Shown: positions 43,881 to 61,543, numbered from the stretch's first letter. The stretch: 63,693 nucleotides of DNA from Thermodesulfovibrionales bacterium (GCA_044450345.1 JBIOIY010000009.1:1-63693), one strand, 5' to 3'. Translations and numbers: made by a program. Notes: generated by a model from the sequence alone, not told the origin.

Positions 43881-43954
43881 AGACAGCGAATAGTGAGGAG
43901 TGAGGGAAAAGAGAAGAAGCATCACTCATTACCGGTCACGATAAAGGATAAGAA

Positions 43955-44824: not shown

Positions 44825-44864
44825 ATGTAATGAATCGTAATATTGAAAATAAATCCGGGGGTAG

Positions 44865-46283
<1,419 letters not shown>

Positions 46284-46286
46284 ACG

Positions 46287-46700
46287 ATGGCAGAGGGAAA
46301 AATCCTTCTCGAAATAGTGACACCGCAGGGTCTGGTCTTCAGCGACGAGGTCGACGAAGTCACCGCTGCAGGAAGCGAAGGTGAATTCGGGGTCCTTCCC
46401 GGTCACGTGCCCTTTGTCACGACCCTCAAGATAGGCATACTCACCTGCAAGAAAGGGAACGAATCGAAGTACTTCTTCGTGAGCTGGGGCTATGCGGAGG
46501 TCGGCCACGAAAAGGTGATGATCCTTGCCGACAGCGCCGAGAAGTCCGAGGAGATCGATCTCGATCGGGCCATGGCAGCCAGGAAGAGGGCTGAAGAGAG
46601 ACTGAAACACGCCGAGAACGTCGACTTCGCAAGGGCCGAGTCAGCGCTCGAACGGGCTGTCACAAGGGCCCAGATTGTAGAAATAAGAAGAGTCAAATAG
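46287..46700 (+). CDS. atpC: ATP synthase F1 epsilon
   Basis: LEIVTP, GEFGVLPGH, ILAD. Confidence 0.97.
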   Translation: MAEGKILLEIVTPQGLVFSDEVDEVTAAGSEGEFGVLPGHVPFVTTLKIGILTCKKGNESKYFFVSWGYAEVGHEKVMILADSAEKSEEIDLDRAMAARKRAEERLKHAENVDFARAESALERAVTRAQIVEIRRVK

Positions 46701-46727
46701 ATTTCGGGAAGTACAAAGATTAACGGA

Positions 46728-46761
46728 GGGTTTGCGGAGATTATCTGCAGACCCTTTTTTG
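46728..46761 (+). terminator. atp operon terminator
   Basis: GGGTTTGCGGA-GATTA-TCTGCAGACCC followed by a T run. Confidence 0.8.
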
Positions 46762-46799
46762 TGCTGATAATGTAGTGCAGCAAATAAACAGCAAAGAGC

Positions 46800-46918
46800 G
46801 TCATTCCCGCGTCCGCACACAGGCGGATCCGCTCTCCTCGGCGAGTCGCCCGTGGCGACCGGGGAGGAAAGGCGGGAATCCAGGAATGCACTGGATTCCG
46901 GGTCAAGCCCGGAATGAC
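46800..46918. repeat. GTCATTCC..GGAATGAC palindromic element with nested mini-hairpin insertions
   Basis: GTCATTCCCGCG[insert]AAGGCGGGAATCCAG..CTGGATTCCGGGTCAAGCCCGGAATGAC; a half copy GATTCCGGACAGGCCGGAATGAC lies at ~50617-50639. Confidence 0.8.
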
Positions 46919-47257
46919 AACGAATTATATATAACTTAGATGTACTGAGGTCTATGACCCAGTTACTTCATTATTCGATGCCCCCCTACCTTAGTAGGAT
47001 TGATATCTTTATCTAAAAACCGCACAGTATTCGGCGATAAGATAAATGAAGGTTCTCTAAAAAAAGAACGGTCTAACATTGTTACTGTTACGAGAACGTT
47101 AATATGCTTATAAGAGGCATTTATCTATGTTTTTTCTCTGGACAGTAGCGGTTTGAATAGAATATACTTGAAAAAATTAAAATTTGGCAGGACTGAAAAG
47201 ACAGCTTTAAAAATAGATTTAAAAAGTCTCGAAAATACTTTCGGAGGATTCGGAGAT

Positions 47258-49105
47258 ATGTCTTTCAGCAGGACCGCATTAATTTTGTTCTTGATCTTCA
47301 TCTTATCACCTTTCTCTACTCCCGCCTTTGCGATGTCGGAAGAAGAAAAGACTTTTCTGAGTATGTATTTTAAGGACGAGGAGCTGGAGATCATTTCTGC
47401 AACGAGGAGCCTTAAGTCTATAACTCGCATTGCGGAGAATATCGAGGTTGTGACAAAAGAAGATATTGAATTGATGAACGCGCATACGCTTGCGGACGTA
47501 CTGAATACGGTCAACGGTGTACAGGTTTTTCCCTTCGGAAACGCACCCGGAGACGCTGCGCAGGTATTCATCCAAGGTTCGGCATCAAAGCATGTTGCGG
47601 TGTTTGTCGACGGCGTTTCGATGAATACCTTAAGCGGCCTAACTGCCGATGTCGGCGCTATACCTGTCCAGTTTGTGGAAAAGATCGAGATCATCAAGGG
47701 ACCGGCCTCTTCGGCTTGGGGTTCGTCTTTGGGAGGCGTGATCAACATTATTACGAAGGCCGGCATGGCAGATAAAACAAAGGGGATGCTTTCTGCGTCA
47801 TACGGCGAACATAATACAGGTGATTTCAGGGCAGAGGCTTCGGGCGGAGAAGGGAAACTAGGGTATTATTTCACTGTTGGCCGTCTTCAGACAGATGGCT
47901 TCAGGCCTGGCAATGACTCTAACGGACATAACTTCTATACTAAATTGTCCTATGAAATTTCAAAGGATACTCAGCTACTGTTTACCACGTTTTACACAAG
48001 CATCGCACATCGGGAGCTCGAAATAGACCCCGACATATTTAGTGATAAGTTCAGGAATATGTTCATGACACTTGCGATGAATTCTTCATTGAGCAGAGAA
48101 CTGAACCTGCAGTTGTCCCTAAGGTATCATCAGGACATATTCGATTCTTTTACCGATGATACTCCGGATTTCTTTGATAAGGATGATACCTATGGCGGAA
48201 GCGCGAAGATGACGTGGCGGCATGAAAACCATGCTATTGTTGCAGGCCTGGATTATGATAATCAACGCCTGGCTTCGAGCGCCATCGGACAAGTACTGCG
48301 GTTTACTAGGTGGGCAGTCTATGCCAATGACACCATCACCCTCGGCAAATTCGCCGTGACGCCGGGCGTGCGATACGATTACACCGGCATTGCAGGTTAT
48401 TTCCTTAGTCCGAGTCTCGGCATAACGTATCAGGTCGCAGACAATGCCATTTTGAGGGCCTATGCAGCACGGGGGTTCAGCAGCATCGAACCCCAAATCT
48501 CGAGGGCGGACTTCGGTAGTTTCATCCATAATCCCGATATAAAGCCGGAGAAGGTGTGGTCTTTTCAACTCGGCGGAGAGGCTGGTCTTACAAAGTATCT
48601 CTGGCTGAAGGTCTCCGGGTTCAGGCATGAGATAAGGGACGCTGAACAGGACGTCGATCTACCGGGAGGGTTCTTTACAACGGTGAATGCGGCGCGGCAG
48701 AGGAGGCAGGGAGTGGAGGTCAGTATGAAGACGACGCCTATTTATAATTTCACGCTTTCCGCAGGAACAACGATAATTGACACAAAGGATCTAGATACCG
48801 GTGAGGATATAAAGACAGTTCCCACGAACACTTATGATGTTGCGCTGAAATACGACGATAAAAAGTCTTTTAGGGCCCTTCTGCAAGGTCATTTCATCTG
48901 GTGGAATATGGATGATTCGGGTAATGCTCAATACAACTCGGTAATTTGGGATCTCAATATGATAAAGAAGCTTCGCTCGGAGGGTAAAAGCACGTGGGAT
49001 ATTTTCGTCACCGCACACAACCTGTTCAATGGTTCGCAATATTGGCAACAGTATTATCAAAATGCCCGCAGATGGATAGAAGCAGGGGTAAGGCTTACAT
49101 TTTAG
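47258..49105 (+). CDS. TonB-dependent outer-membrane receptor
   Basis: Signal peptide, plug (VTKEDIE, IQG, VFVDGV, EKIEIIKGPASSAWGSSLGGVINIITK), barrel ending AHNLFN..GVRLTF (terminal Phe). Confidence 0.95.
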   Translation: MSFSRTALILFLIFILSPFSTPAFAMSEEEKTFLSMYFKDEELEIISATRSLKSITRIAENIEVVTKEDIELMNAHTLADVLNTVNGVQVFPFGNAPGDAAQVFIQGSASKHVAVFVDGVSMNTLSGLTADVGAIPVQFVEKIEIIKGPASSAWGSSLGGVINIITKAGMADKTKGMLSASYGEHNTGDFRAEASGGEGKLGYYFTVGRLQTDGFRPGNDSNGHNFYTKLSYEISKDTQLLFTTFYTSIAHRELEIDPDIFSDKFRNMFMTLAMNSSLSRELNLQLSLRYHQDIFDSFTDDTPDFFDKDDTYGGSAKMTWRHENHAIVAGLDYDNQRLASSAIGQVLRFTRWAVYANDTITLGKFAVTPGVRYDYTGIAGYFLSPSLGITYQVADNAILRAYAARGFSSIEPQISRADFGSFIHNPDIKPEKVWSFQLGGEAGLTKYLWLKVSGFRHEIRDAEQDVDLPGGFFTTVNAARQRRQGVEVSMKTTPIYNFTLSAGTTIIDTKDLDTGEDIKTVPTNTYDVALKYDDKKSFRALLQGHFIWWNMDDSGNAQYNSVIWDLNMIKKLRSEGKSTWDIFVTAHNLFNGSQYWQQYYQNARRWIEAGVRLTF

Positions 49106-49157
49106 CTCAAAAGACCTCTTTCAGAGGGATAGTCTCATGAGAAAAGGAGGGGTGAAG

Positions 49158-49256
49158 ATGAAAGGACGCATTGTAGTTTTGGACAAGGGAGTTGAAAAAA
49201 AGTCGATGGTGAATTCAGGTTGTTGCAAACCGGGAATCGCTCAAAACAAAGTCTGA
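49158..49256 (+). CDS. Putative RiPP precursor, 32 aa, geopeptide-like (MKGRIVVLDKGVEKKSMVNSGCCKPGIAQNKV)
   Basis: Hand-translated, absent from the ORF track; strong AAGGAGG RBS; CC motif; directly upstream of an rSAM/SPASM gene. Confidence 0.85.
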   Translation: MKGRIVVLDKGVEKKSMVNSGCCKPGIAQNKV

Positions 49257-49268
49257 GGGTATTACAGC

Positions 49269-49292
49269 GGAGGGAGGATGGCACCTCCCTCC
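49269..49292 (+). promoter_or_regulatory. Intercistronic hairpin between precursor and maturase
   Basis: GGAGGGAGG-ATGGCA-CCTCCCTCC, 9-bp stem ending 7 nt before the maturase ATG. Confidence 0.7.
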
Positions 49293-49299
49293 TTCTCAA

Positions 49300-50604
49300 A
49301 TGATTCTGTCAAGATACTGTAAAAGTTATCATTCTACGGAGGATTCCGATTCTGTTGTCCTATACTCCACGAAGAAGGCGTCGTCTATTCTTTTGCCTTT
49401 TTCGATGCTGGCCGACATAGAATCCGGAAATCTTATCGAAGAAGAAAAGGAAACACTGGAAGAACTCGGTTTTCTTGTAAAGGACCACGATACAGAGACC
49501 ACGGAAGTCAGCGGCCTTATCGGCGAACTGAATACCCTTAATAAGACTTTCCATGTCAAACCCGTCATGAACCTGGACTGCAATCTTGCGTGCAAGTATT
49601 GTTTCGAAGGCCAACGTAAGGGGAAATTTTATATGACACAGGAGACCGCCGACTCTTTCATTCATTTTGTGGGAGAGCGAATCTCGGCCGACCTCTTCGA
49701 AGAAGTCGGCATAACCTTTTACGGAGGGGAGCCCCTTCTCAGTCTTGACCTAATACTTTATATGTCAGGAAAACTGAAAAAACTAAGTGAAAGCAAGGGC
49801 CTCAGGTTCAGCTTTTCATTCATCACGAACGGCACTCTTTTCACCAGGAAAACTGTAGAAAAACTGATTCCTCTCGGGCTTAAGAGCGCTGCTATAACAA
49901 TCGACGGTCCCCGTGAAATCCATGACTTTTTCCGGCCCTTTAAGGGAGGGGCCGGGAGTTTCGATGCGATCTTTAGAAACGTTAAAGAAGTCTGCGGCAT
50001 TACTGACGTTCAGGTCGGAGGGAATTTTACAAGGGAAAGCTATAAGGAATACCCATTGCTTCTGGACATTATGCTGGCCAGTGGATTGACGCCGGATAAA
50101 ATCTCGCAGGTGAGGTTTGATCCTGTGATGAGGGAACGGGAGGGGATCGCGTCGCCAGGGTTTCATGAGGGATGCGTCTCGCTCAGCGAGCCCTGGCTCT
50201 TTGAAGCGATGGTCTTCCTGAGGGAAGAGATACTCAAGAGAGGTTTCAGCAGCGGCAAGATCATGCCGTCGACGTGCATGATGGAATACACTCATTCTTT
50301 GGTTTTAAACCATGATGGCAGTATATACAAATGTCCCGGCTTTATCGACAGGCCTGAATTTAAGGTGGGCGATCTAAGGAAAGGCATCGAGGACTATAAA
50401 CACAGTCACAACCTCGAAAGCTGGAAGAATGAAGAATGTCTTGAGTGCGCATATCTTCCTTTGTGTTTCGGTGGTTGCAGATACATGAAGTTTATCCGCG
50501 ACGGAAACATGAAAGGCGTGGATTGCAGAAAGCCTTATTATGACGCCACGCTCGAGGCCTTTGTGAAGCAGGATATCAAATATGGGCTTTGCAAGCGGGG
50601 ATAG
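49300..50604 (+). CDS. Radical SAM/SPASM peptide maturase (geopeptide-maturase-like)
   Basis: CNLACKYC (CxxxCxxC), FYGGEPL, ITNG, TIDG; SPASM Cys set C..CPG..CLECAYLPLCFGGC..C; ~80-aa N-terminal extension compatible with a RiPP recognition element. Confidence 0.93.
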   Translation: MILSRYCKSYHSTEDSDSVVLYSTKKASSILLPFSMLADIESGNLIEEEKETLEELGFLVKDHDTETTEVSGLIGELNTLNKTFHVKPVMNLDCNLACKYCFEGQRKGKFYMTQETADSFIHFVGERISADLFEEVGITFYGGEPLLSLDLILYMSGKLKKLSESKGLRFSFSFITNGTLFTRKTVEKLIPLGLKSAAITIDGPREIHDFFRPFKGGAGSFDAIFRNVKEVCGITDVQVGGNFTRESYKEYPLLLDIMLASGLTPDKISQVRFDPVMREREGIASPGFHEGCVSLSEPWLFEAMVFLREEILKRGFSSGKIMPSTCMMEYTHSLVLNHDGSIYKCPGFIDRPEFKVGDLRKGIEDYKHSHNLESWKNEECLECAYLPLCFGGCRYMKFIRDGNMKGVDCRKPYYDATLEAFVKQDIKYGLCKRG

Positions 50605-50696
50605 TAAGTAAAGAAAGATTCCGGACAGGCCGGAATGACATCCATACAAAAAGCCAGTCGGGCATAAAAGGATATGGCACTTGCGGGGCCGGATAT

Positions 50697-50724
50697 GTAG
50701 GTGCACGTTGCAACGTGCCCCTAC
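50697..50724. repeat. GTAG-type REP palindrome
   Basis: GTAGGTGCACGTTG-CAACGTGCCCCTAC (one mismatch). Confidence 0.75.
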
Positions 50725-50811
50725 GGGTAATTGCAATATAATCTATAATATTATTGTGTTATTTATCCGCTTTTGTTATATTTCAACGGAATAAATGTTC
50801 CGTGGGGACGG

Positions 50812-51714
50812 ATGGACAAGAGATCTTCGTTTTTTGTATTAATTACATTGCTCTTCCTCAATGGTTTCGCTGCCTCGTCCGGGGCGGGCGAGATCGTCGT
50901 AATAAAGAGCGCAGATATACAGCCCTATAACGATGCGTTGGAGGGGTTCCGCAGTTCCTTTGCCGATGACGTAACGGAGATAGTATTGTCCGAGACCGAG
51001 CCTGCCGAGGCCTTCAGAAGAGTCCACGATGCCCGTGCTGACGCGGTCTTTGCCATCGGTATGGACGCACTCAACCTCGCACGGTCGGTCGTGGACATCC
51101 CGGTCATATATGCCATGGTCCCACACCACCCTCCCTTGAGTTCCGGCCCGAAGCCCATTTCGGGTGTCAGCATGTATATCCCGCCGGACAGGTATATCGG
51201 GGCCATGCTCGATGTATTTTACGGCGCAAAGAGGATAGGCGTTATATACGACCCCAGAAACTCAGAGGCGTATATGAAAGAGGCGCTGCAATCTGCGCAG
51301 GGCAGGGGAGTGGAACTTGTCCTCAGAAAGGCGTCGAGGCCGTCCGACATCCCTGCTCTTGTCGACTCCTTGAAAGACAAAATAGACGTCTTCTGGATGC
51401 TTCCCGATACGACCGTGATCAACCCTGAGACAGTGAAATACCTTCTCCTTTTCTCATTCCAGAATAAGGTGCCCATATTTACATTTTCGAAAAAATATGT
51501 CGAGATGGGGTCCACTGCCGGGCTCTATACCGCGCCCTTCGACATCGGCGTGCAGGCGGGGGAGATAGCGCGGAAGCTGGTCACGGAGAAAAACCCGAAG
51601 ACGATCAGGACAGACGCGAGAAGGACGGTCCTTGCGGTCAACAGGAAGATAATCAAAAAATTCGGAATAAGGGTGAGGGACGATATCTTAAACAGGGCCG
51701 AAAATGTTGACTGA
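50812..51714 (+). CDS. Orphan periplasmic substrate-binding protein (ABC_sub_bind type)
   Basis: Signal peptide; KRIGVIYDP, DVFWMLPD, IGVQAGEIA, VNRK motifs; no permease or ATPase nearby; overlaps the kinase start. Confidence 0.85.
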   Translation: MDKRSSFFVLITLLFLNGFAASSGAGEIVVIKSADIQPYNDALEGFRSSFADDVTEIVLSETEPAEAFRRVHDARADAVFAIGMDALNLARSVVDIPVIYAMVPHHPPLSSGPKPISGVSMYIPPDRYIGAMLDVFYGAKRIGVIYDPRNSEAYMKEALQSAQGRGVELVLRKASRPSDIPALVDSLKDKIDVFWMLPDTTVINPETVKYLLLFSFQNKVPIFTFSKKYVEMGSTAGLYTAPFDIGVQAGEIARKLVTEKNPKTIRTDARRTVLAVNRKIIKKFGIRVRDDILNRAENVD

Positions 51715-53284
51715 AAGGACAAAGAAGAGTTTCAGTTTCAAGGTATTCAGGTCGTTTGCTGTTTCGATCTTCCTGGTCTTTGCAGGCTTCACAGCCTTTT
51801 TTATCTATTATGAAAACAGGACCGTCCGGAACGACCTGTACAAAGAAGGAAAGATGCTTGCCGACCTCCTCGCATACAACACCAGGACGTGGGTATTCGC
51901 CGAGAACAAGGACATGCTGAAGGACGCGGTCCAGGGGATAATGGTCCAGAAAAATGTACTCGCCGTAGCGATATATAACATGGAGAAGAAGGCGCTGCTG
52001 GTCGAGACGAGGAAGGCCGCGGGGCAGGGGGCCTGGAAGACTGCCCAGCCTGTATCCGAAGCGTTCGCGCTCGACCCGGGCGATAAGACATCCGGACCTG
52101 TGGAAAAAGAAGATACCATCGATTTTCTCGCCCCTGTCTATCTTGAGACCTATAGAAATACAGAGGAGGCGCTTTATTTTGACGTCTCCGCTCCGGTAAG
52201 CAATCAGAGCGTCATCGGCTATGTAAAGGTCATACTCGATAAGGGCGTACTCAAACGGGAGATGAGGGCCATTTTGGTCAGGAACGCCCTCATTGCGGTA
52301 GTTTTTCTCTTTGCGGGCAGCATTGCCATCTATATCGCCATCAAAAGGGTCACCCTGCCGCTCACGAGACTTGCCGTCTCGGTGAGATCTCTTGGGAAGG
52401 GGGAAACGATCGACAAAGTCCCGGTGGAGTCGATGGACGAGATAGGAAGACTGGCGGTAGATTTCAACACCATGTACGACGACCTGAAGAAGAGGGAAGA
52501 GGAAAAAGAGGCCCTCGAAGAGCGGCTGAGGCATGCCCAGAAGATGGAGGCGATTGGGACCCTCGCCCGTGGGATCGCTCACGACTTCAATAATATCCTC
52601 GCGACCCTGAGAGGCTCTATCTACCTCATGGAGAAAAAGCTCCAGAAGCAGGTCAATGTGAAGCAGTATACCGGTCAGGTGCATAGTTCGATCACAAAGG
52701 CCCAGAACCTGATACGGGGACTTCTTACATTCAGCAGGACACAGACGATCAGTTCACGTCCGATGGACGTAAATAATATTATCAAAAGGCTTCAGCCGAT
52801 GCTCGTCAATATCGCAGGAGAAGATATCCGCATAAACATTTCTCTTTTTGAGGACCCCTTGATGGTGATGACCGACAGCATGCAGATGGAGCAGATCCTG
52901 ATGAACCTCTGTTCTAACGCGCGGGATGCAATGCCCGACGGGGGCGTGATTTTCGTATCGACGAGGGCAGAGACCGTCAATGAGGGCAAGCAGACCCTCG
53001 CTCCCGGCGAATATGCCGTTATTTCGTTGGGCGATACAGGTCCGGGCATGGATGACAGGGTCAAGGAGAGGATCTTCGAGCCTTATTTCACTACAAAGGA
53101 TGTGGGAAAGGGAACGGGCCTCGGACTTTCGATCGTATACGGTATAATAGAGCGGCATAAAGGGCATATCGAGGTGCACACGAAGAAGGGAGAAGGAACG
53201 GAATTTAGGGTATACCTGCCTCTCCTCGATGCACAAGAGGGAGATGCGGAAGGCGCGGCAGAGGACACTGCGGCAGAGGTGTGA
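51704..53284 (+). CDS. HAMP-domain sensor histidine kinase
   Basis: Two TMs, periplasmic domain, HAMP (PLTRL..DEIGRLAVDFN), GIAHDFNN, NARDAM, GTGLGL. Confidence 0.95.
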   Translation: MLTERTKKSFSFKVFRSFAVSIFLVFAGFTAFFIYYENRTVRNDLYKEGKMLADLLAYNTRTWVFAENKDMLKDAVQGIMVQKNVLAVAIYNMEKKALLVETRKAAGQGAWKTAQPVSEAFALDPGDKTSGPVEKEDTIDFLAPVYLETYRNTEEALYFDVSAPVSNQSVIGYVKVILDKGVLKREMRAILVRNALIAVVFLFAGSIAIYIAIKRVTLPLTRLAVSVRSLGKGETIDKVPVESMDEIGRLAVDFNTMYDDLKKREEEKEALEERLRHAQKMEAIGTLARGIAHDFNNILATLRGSIYLMEKKLQKQVNVKQYTGQVHSSITKAQNLIRGLLTFSRTQTISSRPMDVNNIIKRLQPMLVNIAGEDIRINISLFEDPLMVMTDSMQMEQILMNLCSNARDAMPDGGVIFVSTRAETVNEGKQTLAPGEYAVISLGDTGPGMDDRVKERIFEPYFTTKDVGKGTGLGLSIVYGIIERHKGHIEVHTKKGEGTEFRVYLPLLDAQEGDAEGAAEDTAAEV

Positions 53285-53287
53285 TGA

Positions 53288-54631
53288 ATGGACAGAATAC
53301 TCGTCGTCGATGACGACAAGGACTTAAGAGGAATAGTCGGGGAGGTGCTGAAAGAGGAAGGCTTCGCGGTAACCGAGGCCGGCGACGGTATCGGCGCCGT
53401 CAAACTCTTCAGGAAGTCCCCCCCGGATGCGGTGCTGCTCGATCTGAACATGCCATATATGAACGGGATCGATGCCATGCACGAACTCAGAAAGATCGGC
53501 CCTGATGTGCCCATCATTATTCTGACCGCATACGGCGACATTCCCACGGCGGTGGATGCCATAAAGAATGGTGTCTATGATTTCATGATAAAGCCCCCTG
53601 AGTTCGACAGGCTTGTTTTTACCCTCCGGCGGGCGCTTGAAAAACGGCGGCTTGAGATTGAGGTCAAAAGGACCACCACCGCGCTTGAGTCGTCGCTCGA
53701 ACACCAGCTTGGCAGAAGCAGTGCAATGAAGACGGTCGTGAATCGGATCAAACAGGTGGCTCACACGAATTTTTCTGTCATCATCCAGGGGGAGACAGGC
53801 ACAGGGAAGTCGGTGGTGGCAGGCGCCATACAGAACCTGAGCGGGAGGCCCGATAGGCCTTTTGTGAGCGTAGACATAGGGCTGATCCCGGACCTCCTTG
53901 TAGAGAGCGAGCTGTTCGGGTATAAGAAAGGGGCCTTTACGGGCGCCGAGAGGGACAAGGCAGGCTATTTCGAGACCGCTCACAGGGGCACCATATTCAT
54001 AGACGAACTGGAAAACATGTCGCCCCATGTTCAGGGGAAACTCTTAAGCGTCATCGAGAGGAAAAAGATTTATCCTCTCGGAAGCACAAGCCCGGTGGAT
54101 GTGGATATCCGCATCATTGCGGCGACCAACAAGGACCTGAAAGAAAGCGTGGAGAGGAAGGCGTTCAGGGAGGACCTTTTTTACCGCCTGGGTGAATTCT
54201 TCATCACGCTGCCGCCCCTCAGAGACAGGGTTGAAGACATACCTTTTTTTGCGAGAAAATTCTCCTTTGAGGCCGGGACAGAACTCAATAAGCAGATCAA
54301 GGAGATTGACGGGAACGCCCTCGCGCTCCTTGTGAGGTATTCATGGCCCGGCAATTTGAGGGAGCTCAAGAACGTAATGAGAAGGGCGACCCTCCTTGCC
54401 GAAGACGATGTGATCGATCAGACATGCGTCGAGGCGTTGATCAGCAAACAGGGAAGCGAGAAAAGTGCGTGTCCGGTCGTGCCGCTGAAAGAGGCGGTCA
54501 GGGACCTCGAGAAGAGGATAATTATTCAGGCCCTTGTCAGGACGGAGGGGAACAAGACAAAGGCAGCGGAACTGCTCGATTTGAGCTACGCGACCCTTTT
54601 TGCGAAGATCAAGGAATACGGCATAAAGTAG
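53288..54631 (+). CDS. NtrC-family sigma-54-dependent response regulator
   Basis: REC domain (VVDDD, LLDLNMP), GETGTGKS, ESELFG..GAFTGA, FREDLFYRL, WPGNLREL, Fis HTH. Confidence 0.97.
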   Translation: MDRILVVDDDKDLRGIVGEVLKEEGFAVTEAGDGIGAVKLFRKSPPDAVLLDLNMPYMNGIDAMHELRKIGPDVPIIILTAYGDIPTAVDAIKNGVYDFMIKPPEFDRLVFTLRRALEKRRLEIEVKRTTTALESSLEHQLGRSSAMKTVVNRIKQVAHTNFSVIIQGETGTGKSVVAGAIQNLSGRPDRPFVSVDIGLIPDLLVESELFGYKKGAFTGAERDKAGYFETAHRGTIFIDELENMSPHVQGKLLSVIERKKIYPLGSTSPVDVDIRIIAATNKDLKESVERKAFREDLFYRLGEFFITLPPLRDRVEDIPFFARKFSFEAGTELNKQIKEIDGNALALLVRYSWPGNLRELKNVMRRATLLAEDDVIDQTCVEALISKQGSEKSACPVVPLKEAVRDLEKRIIIQALVRTEGNKTKAAELLDLSYATLFAKIKEYGIK

Positions 54632-54672
54632 GCATCCCTCGGAATACCCCCTGATACGGATCGTTTGCGAAT

Positions 54673-54818
54673 GCAGCGTGGGACCGTCTTTTAGCTCATT
54701 CCCTGCCTGCCGGCAGGCAGGTCGCTTCGCTCCGAGGCATTTTCTCTACACGCCAATTATGAATACAAGGCGGGTGAATACGGGAAGATGAAACCGCTCA
54801 AAGACAGTCCCACACTGC
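54673..54818. repeat. 146-bp element bounded by 23-bp imperfect inverted repeats (MITE-like or structured RNA)
   Basis: GCAGCGTGGGACCGTCTTTTAGC ... GCTCAAAGACAGTCCCACACTGC (20/23); contains the palindrome CCTGCCTGCCGGCAGGCAGG at 54702-54721. Confidence 0.6.
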
Positions 54819-54977
54819 GTATCTTCGGTGTCGGGGCCGAAGCCCATGTATTAATAAGATAACTATATGAAATCCCATATACCTTTATAGACTTTTTTGT
54901 AGTCATCCACGAACCCGCGTAGATGGCCGCTGTCAAAAATATCTTCTAAAAACGCCGGGTTGTAGCTTTCCTCATTT

Positions 54978-54994
54978 CTGGCCTTTTCTTTGCA
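54978..54994 (+). promoter_or_regulatory. Putative sigma-54 promoter upstream of the LuxR-HTH gene
   Basis: CTGGCCTTTTCTTTGCA: TGGC and TTGCA with exact GG-N10-GC spacing. Confidence 0.6.
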
Positions 54995-55059
54995 CGTATT
55001 TTTGTATCCCTTTTCTTACAATTTTGACGAAACAACAAAAGGAGAGATGACAAGGAGAT

Positions 55060-55299
55060 ATGATTCGAAAAAAGAAGGGTACTGATATGGACACATCGCA
55101 ACTCCTTTCTCCGCGAGAACGAGAAGTTCTCATGTGGTTGAGATGCGGCAAGACATCATGGGCCATATCGCTGATACTTAGGATAAGCGAGAGGACGGTA
55201 AATTACCACGTCAACAATATCATGCGCAAGCTCGATGTCAGCAACAGGATGCAGGCGGTTTCCGTGGCCTACAATGGTGATATCGGCAGGGATGAATGA
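55060..55299 (+). CDS. Stand-alone LuxR-type helix-turn-helix protein
   Basis: LSPREREVLMW..GKTSWAIS.IL.ISERTVNYH..NIMRKL.VSNRMQAV; no N-terminal ligand or REC domain. Confidence 0.9.
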   Translation: MIRKKKGTDMDTSQLLSPREREVLMWLRCGKTSWAISLILRISERTVNYHVNNIMRKLDVSNRMQAVSVAYNGDIGRDE

Positions 55300-55353
55300 G
55301 GGGTCTCCGCGGTTTCGTATCGGATGTGCGTTCGAGGGGTCGGAGGTGAAATA

Positions 55354-56418
55354 GTGAACGATGAAGCGTTCAATGGCAGTAGTAGCGCATTAAGCCCGAA
55401 TTGCATGCCGGACAGAAAGGTGATCGATATACATGCGCACATGTTTGGCACCGGAGATGCCGTAAAGGGGATGTTTGTATCGCAGGAGTTTTTCTCCAGT
55501 CCTGCTTTCTCTTCCATGCTTATGTATCTCAATACCCCGCCCTCTGCGGCGACCGACGGAAAGATCAGGCAAGTCCTTCTTGAAGAGGTTGAAAGCTCCG
55601 GGAGTATAGATTATGCGGTTTTCCTTGCTATGGACGGCGTTTACAAAAACGGTAAATTCGCGGCATCTGAGACGCATCTTGTGGTCCCCAACGATTACAT
55701 AATCGATCTTTCAAGAATGAACAAGAGGGTGCTTTTCGGCGCATCGGTCCACCCCTACAGGGAGGTGACGGAGATGCTGGCTGCTGCGAAACGATGCATA
55801 GACGGGGGTGCAGCGCTCTTTATGTGGTCTCCCTCAGAACAGCAGATAAACCCCGAGGATGACAGGTGCATCCCGTTATATGTATGCCTGGCGAGAGAAG
55901 GCATTCCGCTGCTCGCGCACACGGGCGCCGAGTTTACGGCGCGCACAACCGAATTCAGGGCGGACACATGCGATGATCCGAGAAAGCTGAAGACAGCCCT
56001 CGACATAGGCGTCAAAGTGATTGCGTCGCACTGCGCGCTGCCATCCGGAGAGGACGTGATGCCGGGCTGCGGATATTGGGAGGTATTGCTGGATATGCTG
56101 AGGACTGCGGAAGAAAAAAAGTGGGACCTCTACGCCGACATATCGGCTTGTTGCATGCCCTCGAAGATAGGGTATCTCGAGAGGGTCAAACTGGAAATTG
56201 AAGAGGGAAGGATAAGTCCTAAACGATTCCTCTACGGAAGCGATTTTCCGATGCCTGCGGTGGATATCAATGATGTGAAAAAACCTCTCACTCCCAATGA
56301 GCTGATCGAGCATATGAGCGGTCAGGGCAACCATCTCGACAACTATTACAGGATACTGAAAGATTTCGGGATCCATGAGTCGATCTTTACGAATGCCTGC
56401 GATGTCTTGAGACTTTGA
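55354..56418 (+). CDS. Amidohydrolase family 2 metallo-hydrolase
   Basis: IDIHAH, ASVHPYR, HTGAE, ASHCA, ADIS, YGSDFP; GTG start after GGAGGTG. Confidence 0.88.
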   Translation: MNDEAFNGSSSALSPNCMPDRKVIDIHAHMFGTGDAVKGMFVSQEFFSSPAFSSMLMYLNTPPSAATDGKIRQVLLEEVESSGSIDYAVFLAMDGVYKNGKFAASETHLVVPNDYIIDLSRMNKRVLFGASVHPYREVTEMLAAAKRCIDGGAALFMWSPSEQQINPEDDRCIPLYVCLAREGIPLLAHTGAEFTARTTEFRADTCDDPRKLKTALDIGVKVIASHCALPSGEDVMPGCGYWEVLLDMLRTAEEKKWDLYADISACCMPSKIGYLERVKLEIEEGRISPKRFLYGSDFPMPAVDINDVKKPLTPNELIEHMSGQGNHLDNYYRILKDFGIHESIFTNACDVLRL

Positions 56419-56745
56419 GGCGATACCTCATTTTACCGATTCGGAATTCTTAGGCAATAACGCAGCATGCATGAATGGACTGCCTCCCCGCTCATTCTCG
56501 GCCCCAATAAACCGTGGCCTCCGAGGCAATTTCTCGCCTTGCCTGATGCGGGCAATACGAGAAATTGAAGCCGCTCGAAGGCAGTCCACTCCTGCATAGT
56601 TACAGCCTGCAGAAAAGTCTATAAATGAATTGCGCTTACGCTTGTGGCCATTCCCGCCATTTGAATTAATACGACTATTTTGTTTAGCATAAGAAACGAA
56701 GAATGTGTCGGGGCGGACTATTGGGCCGTACCTGTTCGATACGAT

Positions 56746-57873
56746 ATGAGAATGTTTAGACATATTCCTGCACCCCTGCTCGTGTCACTAGCCCTTTCCG
56801 GGATGCTCCATGCTGCCGCGATCTTCTCTATTCCGGGGACGAGTGTGTTGGGTATCGCCGGCCTTTTTTCCGAAAAAATGTTCTCTGCTGCTCTCGTGCG
56901 GGAGGGGCCGGAGAAGCTTTATGCGAGGGGCCCTGCCGGGAAACACGCCGGGGTGTATTCTCCTCGCGCCGTGTCCAATGAAGATGGTATAAGAACCGAC
57001 GGGAAAAATGAAGGAGGTGCGGAAGTTCAGGAAAAGGTCCCAGCGGACCTGGGAAAGACCCCGGAGATCGCGCCGCCAGGTGAAGAAAAGAAGGGGGCGC
57101 TTCTTGAAGACCCGGCGAAAGAAAAGGATAAAGAAGATGCATTAAAAGTTGCCAGGAATATTTTGCCTGAAGGGGCTGTAATGTCCTCTAAACTCGGCAA
57201 GGTCCCCAGTATAATCAATCTTAAGAGAGAGAAGTTTTATTACGACATATACTGGATGGGAATCTACGTCGGGAATGCGGTCATCGAGGCGGTAAATAAC
57301 GGTGGCATCACAAGGATCACTTCCGAAGTCCATTCCGCCCCTTTCATATCCACCTTCTACAAGGTGGAAGATTACGCCGAAAGCAGGGTCAAAGACGGAA
57401 GGCCCTTTAACTTCAGGATAAGGCAGCACGAGGGCAAATACAGAAGCGACAAAGAGACAATCTTTGACGCGGACAACAAAAAGATCACTTATTTCGACTA
57501 CCTGAAGGGAACTAAGAACGAGCATATTGTCGGGGACAGCATGTTTTGGGATGTGATTTCCGGTTTTTACCATCTTAGGACAAGGGGCCTCGAACCTGAA
57601 ACGACGGTCTTTGTCGATATCTTCGACAGTAACAAGGTGCTGAACGCAGAGGTGAATGTCCTCGGCAGGGAAAGTGTCAAGTTGATCGGAAAAGGAGACA
57701 TAGACGCAATTGTTGTGAAGCCTATACTGAAATCCGATGGTCTTTTTCAGAATAAGGGTGATATAAGGATATGGCTTTCGGACGATGAAAATAGAATGCC
57801 TGTCAAGGTTGAAACCAAGGTCCCCATCGGGAACGTTACGGCCGCACTGAGGCGTGTGGAAACCGAGAGGTAG
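56746..57873 (+). CDS. DUF3108-like protein with N-terminal membrane anchor and charged linker
   Basis: TM SLALSGMLHAAAIF, linker, beta-rich C-terminus E.F.YDIYW.GI.VG..IWLSDDENRMPVK. Confidence 0.75.
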   Translation: MRMFRHIPAPLLVSLALSGMLHAAAIFSIPGTSVLGIAGLFSEKMFSAALVREGPEKLYARGPAGKHAGVYSPRAVSNEDGIRTDGKNEGGAEVQEKVPADLGKTPEIAPPGEEKKGALLEDPAKEKDKEDALKVARNILPEGAVMSSKLGKVPSIINLKREKFYYDIYWMGIYVGNAVIEAVNNGGITRITSEVHSAPFISTFYKVEDYAESRVKDGRPFNFRIRQHEGKYRSDKETIFDADNKKITYFDYLKGTKNEHIVGDSMFWDVISGFYHLRTRGLEPETTVFVDIFDSNKVLNAEVNVLGRESVKLIGKGDIDAIVVKPILKSDGLFQNKGDIRIWLSDDENRMPVKVETKVPIGNVTAALRRVETER

Positions 57874-57892
57874 AGACGGACCCTCAGGCAGG

Positions 57893-58978
57893 TTACCCCC
57901 TTTTGTAGAATGCCTCTGATACCGACGTGTGGACTATCTTGCCCCGGTAAGTATTCAGCGCGGTTTTAATGGACTGATCTCCACTGATCGCCTGTTCGAT
58001 CCCTGCATCTGCGATCGCTTTAATGTAAGGGAGGGTCGCGTTCGTCAGCGCGAGCGTCGCTGTCCTGGGATAGGCCCCTGGCATGTTGGCTACGGTATAG
58101 TGAACAATTCCATCGACCGAATAGATAGGTTTGTCATGGGTTGTCGGCTTTGAGGTGTCGGCACAACCACCCTGGTCTACGGAGACATCGACGATTACCG
58201 CACCTTTTTTCATCGTCCCGAGCATTTCCCTGGAGATCAGCAGCGGGGTCCTGGCGCCGGGCACGAGCACGGCGCCGATTACTATATCGGCTTCCCTGAT
58301 CTCCACGGCGACATCGTGCATGGTGAAGGGCAATGTATGTACCCTGCCCACGAATAGCTCGTCCAGTCTCTGAAGTTTCCCGACGCCTTTGTTTATGACG
58401 ACCGTGTCCATACCCAGTCCGATGCATACCCGCGCCGCGTTTGACCCCACCACTCCCGCTCCGAGTATCAGGACCTTTGCCGGCCTCACCCCCGCAACGC
58501 CGCCGGAGAGAACGCCGGAGCCCCCGTGGATCATCTGGAGATAATAAGCGCCCATGAGCGGGGCCATTCTCCCTGCGATCTCGCTCATGGGAGAGAGGAG
58601 GGGAAGTCCGCCGCCTTTTTCGAGGGTCTCGTATCCGAAGGAGGCTATCTCCTTTTTTAGAAGGAACTCGGTGAGTTCCCTGTTCGGCGCGAGATGCAGA
58701 TATGTGAAGACCGCCTGTCCCGGCTTGAAAAAATCATATTCTCCGGCGAGCGGTTCCTTCACCTTTACGATAAGATCGGACTTTTCGAAAAGGACCTTTT
58801 TCCCAACGACGTCGGCATCCGCCTCGATGTACTCGCCGTCGGGAAATCCGCTGCCCTCACCGGCGCCTTTTTCGACGAGTACAATATGTCCCGCACCCTT
58901 GAGTTCCTTTACCCCCGACGGTATGATGCCGACCCTGTATTCCTCTTTCTTTATCTCTTTCGGGACCCCGATCACCAT
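57893..58978 (-). CDS. ald: Alanine dehydrogenase
   Basis: IGVPKEIK..EYRV, VKVKEP, FTYLHLA, PMSEIAG, GAGVVG, DQGGC, VANMPGA. Confidence 0.97.
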   Translation of the reverse strand: MVIGVPKEIKKEEYRVGIIPSGVKELKGAGHIVLVEKGAGEGSGFPDGEYIEADADVVGKKVLFEKSDLIVKVKEPLAGEYDFFKPGQAVFTYLHLAPNRELTEFLLKKEIASFGYETLEKGGGLPLLSPMSEIAGRMAPLMGAYYLQMIHGGSGVLSGGVAGVRPAKVLILGAGVVGSNAARVCIGLGMDTVVINKGVGKLQRLDELFVGRVHTLPFTMHDVAVEIREADIVIGAVLVPGARTPLLISREMLGTMKKGAVIVDVSVDQGGCADTSKPTTHDKPIYSVDGIVHYTVANMPGAYPRTATLALTNATLPYIKAIADAGIEQAISGDQSIKTALNTYRGKIVHTSVSEAFYKRG

Positions 58979-58979
58979 A

Positions 58980-59429
58980 TCAGACAAAGGTCTCGAAATG
59001 GCCCAGGATTTCCGATTTCTTGGTTTTTGTGAGGTCCTCTGTAATGTTTCTTGACAGCTTGCTCTTCACCGTAGGGTCGAGGCACTCCACTATCTGTCTG
59101 TTTATCTCCTCAGGCGCGGCAAGGTACCATCTTTCGTAACCGCTCCTGCCTATGAGGGCGTTAATGTCCTTTGCGATCAGCTTCGTCATTCTCCTTTCGG
59201 CCTCCAGCTTGGTGTTATGGGACTCTCCGTTGCCGCAGGCAGCACCCTTTTTCCCGCCCATCATTCCGAATCTGCCGTTGGCGTCACTGTATTTTTCAGA
59301 CAATTTCCCGTGCGCTTCTGTGGAGTCATAGCTTTCGATCAGCTGCACGCGCGGGCTTTCCCGCTCTTCCTTCGTTACGCTGTAGGCCTTGAAATGTCCC
59401 CGATCCGCTGCGATAATTATCTTCTTCAT
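58980..59429 (-). CDS. Host-attachment (AtsE/baeRF-like) family protein
   Basis: IIAADRG..KAY, W.LAAP, DLTK motifs. Confidence 0.75.
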   Translation of the reverse strand: MKKIIIAADRGHFKAYSVTKEERESPRVQLIESYDSTEAHGKLSEKYSDANGRFGMMGGKKGAACGNGESHNTKLEAERRMTKLIAKDINALIGRSGYERWYLAAPEEINRQIVECLDPTVKSKLSRNITEDLTKTKKSEILGHFETFV

Positions 59430-59620
59430 ACCGTCCCTTCTTTCTTTAGATAAGATGATTTTCCGCTCTCCTAATTTCATTTTAGCCCTTCCCGGGGTCC
59501 TTTGCAAAAGAAAAAAAGGAGATAAAAAAAACGGAGATGCCCTTGTCTGTCGGCCGTGGCGACTGGAGTATCCCGGGGGTTGCCCCTTGTAATTAAAGGG
59601 GAAAATGATACAATGAATTC

Positions 59621-61543
59621 ATGGCTGAAAAAGGAGATATCGGGGAAAGGGAGAGTATCGCCGACAAACTGAGAAGCCCTCAATGGAGGGCAAGCATTGT
59701 TGCCCTTCTCGTCTTTATTATCCTATTTGTCTGGGCGCAGTATTTTACACCGACGGGGCCGGAGCGGTACGAGATAAACTACAGTCTGTTTTTCGAACAA
59801 CTCAACGCAGGCAACATTAAATCCGTTTCAATAAGGAAGCTCCAGGTAAACGGCGAGTTCATTAAGGAAGTGAATATCACCTTACCCGGAGCGAAAAAAC
59901 CGCTGGCGGTGAAGGATTTTCAGACCTACCTGCCTTCTTTTCAGGGCGAAGGCCTGCTATCAGAATTGGAAAAGAAGAACGTGGTCATAAATGTCGAACC
60001 GTCCGAGGAAAAATCGCTCTTCTGGCAATTTATTATCGGGCTTCTTCCCTGGGTAGTGATTATCGGGGTATGGATGCTGATTATGCGCCGCGCCCAACAG
60101 CAGATACAGGGCGGACCGGGCGGGCTTTTCACCTTCGGCGCGAGCAAGGCAAAGCTGTTCGATGCAAAGAAGCCGGGGGTGACGTTCAAGGACGTTGCGG
60201 GCATGGAAAACGTGAAGCTGGAACTCAGGGAGACGATCGAGTTTCTTCAGGACCCTTCCCGGTATTTGAAGATCGGGGCAAAGGTCCCGAAAGGAGTTCT
60301 CCTGATCGGGCCGCCGGGGACAGGGAAGACACTTCTTGCCCGCGCCACAGCAGGAGAGGCGGGGGTGCCTTTTTACAGCATCAGCGCCTCGGAGTTTATC
60401 GAGATGTTTGTGGGGGTAGGAGCGTCCCGCGTGAGAGACATGTTCCAGAAAGCGAAGACATCTCATCCGAGCATTATTTTTATCGACGAGATCGACGCGG
60501 TAGGCCGCACCCGGGGCACGGGGCTCGGCGGCGGACACGATGAGAGAGAACAGACCCTGAACCAGCTTCTGAGTGAGATGGACGGTTTTGACCCCCACGA
60601 CGAGGTGATCGTCATGGCAGCTACGAACAGGCCGGACGTTCTGGATCCGGCGCTTCTGAGGCCTGGACGTTTCGACAGACATATCGTGATCGACAGACCC
60701 GGGTGGAAAGAGCGCAAGGCGATCCTGGAAGTGCATGTGCGGGAGAAGGCGCTTGCCGATAATGTCGATCTCGAGACCATCGCGAAGGGGACGCCGGGCA
60801 TGACCGGCGCGGACCTGGAAAATCTTGCAAACGAGGCAGCACTCGTCGCCTTGAGAAAAAATAAAGATAAGCTCGATATGAGCGACTTCGAGGAGGCGAT
60901 GGACATCACCCTGATGGGCTCCAAGAGAGAAGAGACGATCAGCGACGCTGAGAAAAAGATAACGGCCTATCACGAGGCGGGCCACACCCTGGTCGCATGG
61001 GAATTGCCCGGCACCGACCCGATATACAAAGTGAGCATCATCCCCAGGGGAGTGGCGATGGGCGTAACGCAGCTTCTCCCGGAGGAAGACAGACATTATT
61101 ATCCCAAGACGTATCTCGTGAACAGATTATGCGTGGCCCTTGGGGGCAGAAACGCTGAAAAACTCGTTTTCGGCGAAGTGAGCAGCGGAGCCCAGAGCGA
61201 CCTGAAAGAGGCGACGTCCCTTGCCGAGAAGATGGTCTCCCAGTGGGGAATGAGCGATAAGGTCGGCCCGGTGAATCTGGGAAGGGGCGAGGAACATCCT
61301 TTTCTGGGGCGTGAACTTTCAATGCCGAAGCGCTATAGCGAGGAAATGGCCTGGCTCATGGACCAGGAGATACAAAGGTTTATAATCGAAGCCGAGGAAA
61401 AGGTGAAGGAGATACTCATGCAAAACAGGCATATTCTCGATAAACTGGCCGACGCCCTCATCAAAGAAGAGGTGCTCGATAAGGACGACATCGAAAGGAT
61501 CATAACGGGGGCGGAGGAAAAAAAGGAGAAGCAGGGGGACTGA
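59621..61543 (+). CDS. ftsH: ATP-dependent zinc metalloprotease FtsH
   Basis: Two TMs, [43 protein letters not shown]. Confidence 0.98.

Follow-up and report, generated by a model that had tools for sequence, protein, structure and literature searches.

Peptide signalling is a textbook trait of Gram-positive bacteria, with comQXP and agr as their peptide pherotype loci. A peptide of the size discussed here cannot pass porins, and among outer-membrane bacteria we are aware of no ribosomal peptide signal that has been characterised and has an import gate to itself. Among the described systems that come near to such a design, methanobactin operons encode a peptide that is made by ribosomes and modified after translation (RiPP) and that serves as chalkophore, together with the TonB receptor MbnT and the binding protein MbnE. 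In the PfeS/PfeR system a TonB receptor is paired with a two-component sensor of the ferric siderophore, and in FecA-type cell-surface signalling a TonB receptor is coupled to a signal pathway for the imported ligand. In the LuxP-LuxQ-LuxO system of Vibrio, a sigma-54 activator receives its input from a kinase-docked periplasmic binding protein. A further system, named geopeptide in NCBIfam, exists as a pair of a precursor family (TIGR04229) and a radical S-adenosylmethionine (SAM) maturase family, of which the latter (TIGR04280, 'geopeptide radical SAM maturase') is a computational 'hypothetical equivalog'. Here we describe a locus that belongs to this last system and shares features with all the others. 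It occupies positions 47,258 to 57,873 of a stretch of 63,693 nt (in the following called the window) from a Thermodesulfovibrionales bacterium (GCA_044450345.1, JBIOIY010000009.1:1-63693).

According to profile searches and the annotation of open reading frames (ORFs) in the window, the locus consists of nine genes on the + strand, all in the same direction, between the atp terminator and ald, the convergent gene for alanine dehydrogenase (Table 1). A first-pass annotation of the window had listed the same genes and borders, and both were found as described. It had also proposed that the locus is a circuit for an imported peptide signal and that no circuit of this architecture has been characterised; our literature searches, with subscription journals outside their coverage, likewise found none, and full-text searches for 'geopeptide' and 'TIGR04280' returned no literature. 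From the analyses below, the locus belongs to the geopeptide system, as yet uncharacterised, and a circuit in which the peptide is made, re-imported and sensed is well supported. New in the present analysis are the split of the locus into two evolutionary modules, the conserved promoter target of its regulator, the support from a co-fold for docking of the binding protein on the kinase and a candidate exporter of the major facilitator superfamily (MFS) in paralogous loci.

In the proposed circuit, the precursor of 32 amino acids (aa) would be bound through its conserved leader by the radical SAM/SPASM maturase, which would cross-link the invariant Cys-Cys, probably as one or more thioethers, judging from its nearest enzyme relatives. 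The product would then leave the cell, for which the small MFS protein of paralogous loci is a candidate exporter. Since the product would be too large for porins, its return across the outer membrane would depend on the dedicated TonB-dependent receptor, which would act as a selectivity gate. In the periplasm, the product would be reported by a PF04392 protein lacking a transporter and docked on the kinase's sCache_4 domain, and the kinase would phosphorylate the sigma-54 activator. The latter would fire the promoter at 54979 and thereby switch on a LuxR-solo regulator, an amidohydrolase and a DUF3108 envelope protein. As for the purpose of such a circuit, we consider it quite possible, without calling it probable, that the peptide is a self or kin signal whose types can be exchanged between strains. 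This role is favoured because of the variable, non-chelating tails, the presence of several cassettes per genome, the transcription-factor output and the lack of a permease.

The pair of peptide and maturase, left unnamed by the first-pass annotation, is the geopeptide pair TIGR04229/TIGR04280. The match of the maturase to TIGR04280 covers model positions 1-427 of 428, the SPASM domain is recognised by TIGR04085 (59.7 bits, cut-off 27), and the residues C94, C98 and C101 of the CxxxCxxC cluster motif are invariant in 16 sequences. Next in score come TIGR04463, CefB, the PapB ranthipeptide family, SCIFF and QhpD, all of them families of Cys-directed maturases of peptides, and the nearest solved chain is 5wgg (72.9 bits), a SCIFF thioether synthase. 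Because the best-scoring relatives and the nearest solved chain are Cys-directed peptide maturases, our best guess is that the enzyme would form its thioether link or links from the Cys-Cys.

The precursor reaches only 18.7 bits (E 0.0011) with TIGR04229, whose cut-off is 30; we read this shortfall as the result of a model trained on too narrow a set. It is built of a conserved leader of a hydrophobic strand plus Gly, the invariant Cys-Cys and a polar tail of nine residues with basic residues near its end, and its gene lies directly upstream of the maturase gene, 43 nt before position 49300. In a rule-based extraction, all 57 loci yielded a Cys-Cys ORF of matching build directly ahead of the maturase, so the peptide is not a chance ORF. 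This count excludes L046 (masked letters), L057, L078, L081, L085 and L092 (no upstream DNA), L068 (a near-copy of L067), L002 (a duplicate of another locus) and 20 loci that were added later. Across the 57 loci the tail after the Cys-Cys has 7-15 residues (median 9), a basic residue is present within the last three positions in 49 loci, and the Cys-Cys is the sole invariant part of the core. The leader Gly stands 11-12 residues ahead of the Cys-Cys in 41 of the 46 loci having the hydrophobic-strand leader motif. A second leader type, made up of Lys/Ala-rich repeats, was found in 13 loci; one maturase clade with good support has nine members, and all nine are among these loci. That the leader type tracks the maturase clade is expected if the enzyme recognises the leader.

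The second leader type is rich in Lys, Ala and Thr, extends to about 60 residues, has a composition like that of histone H1 and precedes the Cys-Cys in place of the hydrophobic strand (L056, L058, L059, L063, L064, L066, L067, L069, L075, L044, L077, L080 and L082). At L047:9000-9470, one maturase gene is preceded by two precursor ORFs in tandem, whose leaders are nearly identical and whose tails differ. In the window, the precursor and maturase genes are separated by a GC-rich hairpin (Table 1), possibly an attenuator or a transcript-stabilising element that would set the ratio of precursor to enzyme.

Maturase loci were collected from the window genome, 60 related genomes, a metagenome scan with the maturase alignment and a sample of 301 genomes from the phylum. 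The window genome has four maturase copies above the cut-off (contigs C9, C57, C7 and C67). Such a maturase is present in 27 of 61 genomes (the 60 related ones and the window's) and in 32 of the 301 sampled phylum genomes, corresponding to 24 of 122 genera; the two nearest titled records are metagenome-assembled genomes of Nitrospirota. Linkage was counted in 83 maturase-bearing loci, using profiles that were built from the first locus set and applied with thresholds of our own choice. Where at least 6 kb were available on both sides (43 loci), a TonB receptor is present in 42, the binding protein in 38, the sCache sensor in 38 and all three together in 38 loci, the five exceptions being L001, L065, L091, L179 and L180. 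A sigma-54 regulator lies within 9 kb in 20 and a small MFS protein is found in six of the 43 loci. Most of the 20 later-added loci, which stayed outside profile building, show the same gene set.

The linkage is preserved through at least four gene orders. In order A, which is that of the window, the atp genes are followed by receptor, peptide, maturase, binding protein, kinase and regulator. Order B sets kinase and binding protein in divergent orientation to receptor, peptide, maturase and MFS gene; order C has receptor, peptide, maturase and MFS gene with a distant binding protein and a hybrid kinase; and in order D kinase, binding protein and receptor are divergent from the pair of peptide and maturase, and a sigma-54 regulator stands next to them. 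Across the loci, the module of binding protein and sCache_4 sensor is joined to three transmitter classes, namely HisKA with a sigma-54 regulator, hybrid HisKA-REC and PAS-HisKA_3. A lack of co-conservation of receptor, binding protein and kinase with precursor and maturase, which the first-pass annotation had named as an outcome speaking against its proposal, was thus not observed.

The sensing side of the circuit is represented by the binding protein and the kinase, whose genes overlap by 11 nt. There is no permease or ATPase gene for the binding protein in the locus. With our profile A2, the four geopeptide-linked binding proteins of the window genome score 365-438 bits, compared to 105 and about 40 bits for the two unlinked PF04392 paralogues; four of the six PF04392 genes of this genome adjoin geopeptide maturases. 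Five genomes of the same family that lack the maturase gave best matches of 74-80 bits to this profile or none at all. When the mature binding protein (residues 38-313, alignment of 33 rows) was co-folded with residues 38-190 of the kinase (27 rows), the median ipSAE was 0.68, with 0.07 for the best control; the runs agree in at least 79% of the contacts and the partners have a pLDDT of at least 72. In a calibration, which is approximate for alignments of one's own making, the same mark was reached by 116 of 157 solved complexes and by 2 of 215 mismatched pairs. The positions of the predicted interface are also more conserved than the rest (0.62 vs 0.52, with 58 of 5000 random sets as high, and 0.56 vs 0.41, with 15 of 5000). 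The model supports, but does not show, that the binding protein docks on the periplasmic domain of the kinase.

The regulator has the domains of a sigma-54-dependent response regulator and stays below the cut-off of every named equivalog, for instance LuxO (NF041946; 324.1 bits, cut-off 800) and AtoC (411 bits, cut-off 714). The genome has one rpoN gene. An element of the type TGGC-N8-TGC[AT] is located between the regulator gene and the LuxR gene in all 15 order-A loci. Because the overall density of this pattern across the loci is at chance (70 found, 77 expected), it is the position that is conserved. In many of 17 regions inspected by eye and left uncounted, a dyad of the type TATAcAAAGTTT / AAACTTTgTATA precedes the promoter by 90-130 nt. 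In the window, matches to the activator site at up to three mismatches number four, where 0.34 are expected. One of them is a second copy upstream of the DUF3108 gene (Table 1), which is not followed by a well-spaced -24/-12 element.

The operon behind the promoter always opens with regulatory genes, which are a LuxR-solo protein and, in some loci, a CheY-like receiver or a second kinase, and it usually holds the amidohydrolase and the DUF3108 protein as well. In the window, the small LuxR/GerE protein has EpsA as its best NCBIfam match (72.3 bits, cut-off 170), the Atlas neighbours of the amidohydrolase are all PF04909 proteins, and the DUF3108 protein has an N-terminal membrane or signal segment and a low-complexity linker. 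As judged from sequence, the conserved target of the regulator is therefore the promoter ahead of the LuxR-solo operon and not the peptide genes. LuxR protein, amidohydrolase and DUF3108 protein form the output operon of the regulator and do not belong to the sensing path, and we read the circuit as one that feeds forward into a second regulatory tier and not as mere uptake feedback.

The receptor has a signal peptide, a TonB-box-like stretch (read by eye), a plug and a barrel of 22-strand size. It lacks an N-terminal signalling (STN) domain, since Pfam gives only the Plug, the barrel and the related OMP_b-brl_3, and there are no sigma or anti-sigma genes in the locus. A receptor lies within 1.5 kb of the maturase in 69 of 70 evaluable loci, and the only four Plug-domain genes of the window genome all adjoin geopeptide maturases. 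Such a dedicated receptor beside a RiPP cassette would equally be expected if the product were a metallophore: the Cys-Cys peptide would be released, bind a metal in short supply (in a sulfidic habitat perhaps a thiophilic trace metal), be recaptured by the TonB receptor and be unloaded in the periplasm, with binding protein and kinase sensing the loaded form. The Cys-Cys as the only invariant part of the core suits this explanation, and so does the exchange of cassettes among congeners described below, for which pyoverdine-type pairs of receptor and metallophore are a precedent. The confinement of the genome's TonB receptors to geopeptide loci agrees with it too, and a TonB receptor joined with a two-component siderophore sensor, as in PfeS/PfeR, is an established design. 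However, outside the Cys-Cys no His, Asp, Glu or Cys is conserved in the tails, which are Gly/Ala/Ser/Pro-rich or hydrophobic, and thioethers, as made by the nearest enzyme families, would use up the thiols. Moreover, the locus contains no inner-membrane metal or peptide permease and no reductase, and the conserved target of the regulator is a transcription-factor operon and not the receptor. We therefore regard a metallophore as somewhat unlikely, and a signal as the preferred role of the peptide.

The genes from receptor to regulator do not share one history. In the 14 order-A loci that hold all six genes compared, the Mantel correlations of the pairwise identity matrices are 0.92-0.94 among binding protein, kinase and regulator and 0.65-0.75 between these and AtpD. 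Receptor and maturase correlate with each other (0.63) and with AtpD at 0.30-0.39. The same division appears in the orthologous locus L061 from the same genus, whose nucleotide identity to the window is 89.7% in the atp genes, 83.2% from binding protein to regulator and 76.5% from the LuxR gene to ald, while receptor, peptide and maturase are patchy with 65-72%. The five same-genus loci form a clade in the trees of the binding protein (96), the kinase (96), the regulator (99) and AtpD (86, not starred). In contrast, monophyly of the same loci was rejected for the maturase (difference in log-likelihood 97.7, p of the approximately unbiased (AU) test 5.3e-7) and the receptor (452.5, p-AU 0.0015). 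These were quick trees, and the test, with a same-genus group defined by kinship label, was run after the maturase tree had been seen. Congeners differ even in leader type. The deep classes, on the other hand, match between the maturase and the binding-protein trees: order C, with its hybrid kinase of about 747 aa, stands apart, the divergent orders B and D stand together, and order A, that of the window, forms its own group. From the Mantel correlations, the identities to L061 and the AU tests we conclude that receptor, peptide and maturase form a cassette exchanged at a fixed chromosomal site, and that binding protein, kinase and regulator are inherited vertically. Given the matching deep classes, the detector fits the peptide class and not the individual peptide.

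Hypervariable tails and cassette exchange at a fixed locus would also be seen if the peptide were an antagonistic, bacteriocin-like means of kin discrimination that enters its targets via the cognate TonB receptor, the cassettes then being attack and entry types. Several cassettes in one genome could be understood in the same way, and at the related metagenome locus L086 (11983-16035) a 1350-aa RHS-repeat protein and small downstream ORFs follow directly after the maturase. Yet a producer without an immunity gene would suffer from its own toxin if it encoded the entry receptor for it, the gene order of the window has no conserved small membrane protein of an immunity-like kind, and the tight link to binding protein and kinase would have no role. 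An antagonistic peptide is therefore very improbable.

Several observations weigh against the circuit as we have drawn it. First, the linkage counts are not independent, because most loci come from one phylum and many are orthologous; the varied gene orders weigh more than the counts in this respect. Second, receptor or maturase correlate with binding protein, kinase or regulator at a Mantel r of 0.39-0.46. The predicted co-variation of binding protein and peptide is not seen; receptor and maturase do co-vary. Between the window and the orthologous locus of the same genus the binding protein is 78% identical (4 of 30 interface positions and 55 of 276 positions overall differ), and the peptide tail is different. 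Because a sensor that reads the tail should co-vary with it, the circuit has to assume a binding protein that reads the invariant cross-linked core. A specific form of this assumption is a TonB-gated pherotype, in which the hypervariable, cross-linked tail would be read by the co-evolving receptor, which would determine whose peptide is admitted, and the conserved binding protein would read only the cross-linked Cys-Cys. Core sensing may then work by freeing a conserved Leu-Tyr-Phe loop of the kinase from an aromatic pocket. We think this elaboration unlikely.

Third, this very loop (L157, Y158 and F159) sits between the two lobes of the binding protein in the co-fold model and fills the cleft. 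The model fits either a ligand that displaces the loop or a misplacement of an aromatic loop where an aromatic ligand belongs. The nearest solved chains to the binding protein are 3lkv, 6hni and 3lft, and the solved PF04392 proteins compiled in Table 1 of PMC10443332 bind L-Trp, L-Tyr or L-Phe, not peptides. It might be that an external small molecule, for instance an aromatic amino acid, is what binding protein, kinase and regulator sense, and that they are linked to the cassette only by regulation or as part of a shared regulon. The evolution of these three proteins with the species, independent of the cassette, would agree with this, as would the conservation of interface and cleft positions between loci with different peptides. 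However, in the genomes tested the linked binding-protein type occurs only where the maturase occurs, its deep classes mirror those of the maturase, and the pair accompanies the cassette across the four gene orders and the three kinase classes. In addition, there is no regulator-type promoter before the cassette in 80 of 83 loci, so that control of the cassette by the regulator is not visible. Taken together, we hold an unrelated ligand to be decidedly unlikely, and the re-imported peptide remains our preferred ligand.

A fourth point is autoinduction. There is no sigma-54-type site ahead of the peptide or the receptor gene in the window, and across the loci such an element precedes the peptide in 3 of 83 and the receptor in 3 of 83, with about two expected by chance. 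Since these sites are near chance and absent from the window, no autoinduction loop is visible; general sigma-54 control of the cassette was rejected as an explanation, and the label 'quorum-sensing-like', given to the locus before, is not yet earned. As a separate observation, near-perfect sigma-54 promoters of the type TGGCAC-N5-TTGCA stand directly upstream of the peptide at L042:10850 (-), L074:3849 (+) and in L046, where those at 3880 and 1593 (+) are upstream of the peptide and also of the receptor. In these three loci the cassette itself may be under sigma-54 control.

A fifth point concerns the energy for import and the route of export. No TonB_C domain was found in the genome, which is 91% complete, so that a TonB gene may have been missed. 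The sole set of MotA/ExbB, ExbD and TonB_2 genes is part of a Tol-Pal operon with TolB, an OmpA-type Pal and a TPR protein (C14:31000-37000, L156). None of the nine genes encodes an exporter or protease, as the first-pass annotation had remarked, and neither an exporter nor a leader protease was found downstream up to 62173. Export, which had been left unexplained, is partly accounted for by the paralogous loci: directly after the maturase, every order-B and order-C locus has a half-size MFS protein of 185-194 aa, often with overlapping stop and start codons, which makes it a candidate exporter. These include the three other loci of the window genome, where the MFS gene is cut by the contig ends. 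The MFS gene after the maturase is confined to these two gene orders, and the window locus itself has no exporter. The tails are hydrophobic or aromatic in the MFS-bearing orders B and C (mean hydropathy +0.71 and +0.84) and polar in the orders A and E (-0.36 and -0.94). All in all, the imported-signal circuit of the first-pass annotation is supported by linkage, by co-absence and by the docking in the co-fold, and it lacks support as far as co-variation of the sensor and autoinduction are concerned.

Table 1. Features of the geopeptide locus and its borders, with positions counted from the first letter of the window
Feature	Position	Strand	Basis and remarks
Intrinsic terminator of the atp operon	46725-46757	+	14-pair stem followed by a T run; upstream border of the locus
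Candidate sigma-70-like promoter of the receptor-to-regulator unit	47139-47168	+	TGGACA-18-TATACT; 10 of 12 consensus matches and nothing more
TonB-dependent receptor	47258-49105 (longest ORF start 47153)	+	PF07715 Plug 74.8 bits; PF00593 barrel 117.9 bits
Geopeptide precursor, 32 aa, Cys-Cys	49158-49256	+	AGGAGG ribosome-binding site about 8 nt upstream
GC-rich hairpin between precursor and maturase	49254-49298	+	-21.7 kcal/mol, z -2.29; 4 of 200 shuffles fold as well
Geopeptide radical SAM/SPASM maturase	49300-50604	+	TIGR04280 578.7 bits, cut-off 400
PF04392 periplasmic binding protein	50773-51714 (likely true start ATG 50812)	+	PF04392 94.5 bits
Sensor histidine kinase	51704-53284	+	transmembrane segment, sCache_4, transmembrane segment, HAMP, HisKA, HATPase_c
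Sigma-54-dependent response regulator	53288-54631	+	PF00158 208.6, PF00072 100.1 and PF02954 49 bits (REC, AAA+, Fis-type helix-turn-helix)
Terminator-like hairpin downstream of the regulator gene	54724-54738	+	consensus scan
Upstream activator site (part of the dyad)	54886-54901	+	about 90 nt upstream of the promoter at 54979-54994
Sigma-54 (-24/-12) promoter of the output operon	54979-54994	+	TGGC-N8-TGCA
LuxR/GerE-type DNA-binding protein, 79 aa	55060-55299	+	PF00196 77 bits; without receiver or ligand domain
Amidohydro_2 metal hydrolase	55324-56418	+	PF04909 35.7 bits; Atlas record starts at residue 11
Second copy of the activator site	56608-56623	-	2 mismatches to 54886-54901; upstream of the DUF3108 gene
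DUF3108 protein	56680-57873 (likely start 56752)	+	PF11306 124.7 bits; Atlas record starts at residue 25
Alanine dehydrogenase (ald), convergent	57893-58987	-	TIGR00518 440.8 bits, cut-off 391.85

Transcription from receptor to regulator probably starts at the sigma-70-like promoter listed in Table 1. Between the atp terminator and this promoter lies a GC-rich palindromic element of 136 nt (46790-46925), which is single-copy in the genome. The bins 46405-47406 have a very high summed contig depth in three of four metagenome runs, a depth that cannot be ranked, and sequence resembling this part may be widespread in other organisms. Compared with 43900-58900, the four DNA runs gave short contigs only, and the joints, with sides of fewer than 30 letters at 90% likeness, are unreliable. 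A repeat search of the locus found no repeat common to the intergenic spacers, and there were no Rfam matches between 46500 and 58000 at E values up to 1. A riboswitch ahead of the receptor, for example a cobalamin riboswitch as prompted by BtuB-like partial matches, was rejected in view of the zero Rfam matches. Downstream of ald, up to 62173, there are genes for a Host_attach/baeRF family 12 protein (58980-59507, -), an FtsH protease (59621-61543, +) and a PF0610-like protein; the first two are outside the finding.

The three further geopeptide loci of the same genome (C57:8001-19384, C7:1-12000 and C67:1-12000; L157-L159) have a divergent gene order, are about 90-95% alike, carry a different peptide tail each and are each situated at a contig end. 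They may be true paralogues or strain variants in the bin, whose contamination is 1.94%. The receptor of the C57 locus is split into two ORFs of 115 and 511 aa, and the loci on C7 and C67 have no kinase after the binding protein. On C7 (5142-5895, L158), a nucleotidyltransferase/HEPN pair resembling a toxin-antitoxin system directly follows the binding-protein gene at the place expected for the kinase. In a further locus (L076:2279-6328), two tandem TonB-dependent receptor genes precede one pair of peptide and maturase, and no binding protein or kinase is seen within the 1.9 kb between the maturase and the contig end.

If the geopeptide is a signal, the cassette would show how the barrier of the outer membrane can be solved by a TonB receptor, with a recognition type that is exchangeable without touching the signalling core. 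Should the pherotype variant be true, recognition would be split between a fast-evolving gate and a slow-evolving detector, and strains would change their 'language' by swapping one cassette of three genes. If it is a metal carrier instead, anaerobes would have a class of radical-SAM RiPP metallophore that is new. In both cases, the locus offers a small and defined set of parts, consisting of precursor, enzyme, receptor, binding protein plus kinase and a mapped sigma-54 promoter that could serve as reporter.

In comparison with the known systems, the closest likeness is to the geopeptide pair itself, to which the locus corresponds by the full-length maturase match above the cut-off, the SPASM domain and the Cys-Cys precursor directly upstream. 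It differs in that its precursor stays below the TIGR04229 cut-off, in a family defined by computation only. The thioether maturases of the SCIFF/ranthipeptide and QhpD types also act on Cys-containing substrates, but the window maturase is far below each of their cut-offs (PapB 137.5, SCIFF maturase 97.9 and QhpD 93.5 bits), and the geopeptide has a Cys-Cys core with a variable tail that lacks a conserved acceptor residue.

With methanobactin operons the locus shares the combination of RiPP precursor, maturase, dedicated TonB receptor and periplasmic binding protein. However, the enzyme here is a radical SAM/SPASM protein, and according to Pfam the nine genes encode neither MbnB/MbnC-type domains nor a MATE exporter. 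There is also no sigma/anti-sigma pair, and the coupling of the binding protein is with a kinase instead of import. The functional coupling of a TonB receptor to a signal pathway for an imported ligand is common to PfeS/PfeR-PfeA, FecA and the proposed circuit. In the latter, the receptor has no N-terminal signalling domain and, in the window, no regulator-type promoter ahead of it, and the ligand would be self-made and ribosomal.

The sensing branch is most like LuxP-LuxQ-LuxO of Vibrio, where the succession is also from a transporter-less binding protein, docked on the periplasmic domain of a kinase (in the present case in the co-fold), to a sigma-54 activator and a downstream regulator. The folds are different, with PF04392 for the binding protein and sCache_4 for the sensor, the regulator fails the LuxO equivalog cut-off, and a ribosomal peptide, dependent on a TonB receptor, would be the ligand. 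In comparison with comQXP and agr, the variable partner of the peptide is an outer-membrane receptor instead of the sensor of the kinase, the locus has no exporter or processing protein, no autoinduction promoter was seen and the sensor does not co-vary with the peptide cassette. What unites the geopeptide locus with these Gram-positive loci is a hypervariable cassette of peptide, modifying enzyme and one recognition protein, which is exchanged among close relatives beside conserved signalling genes.

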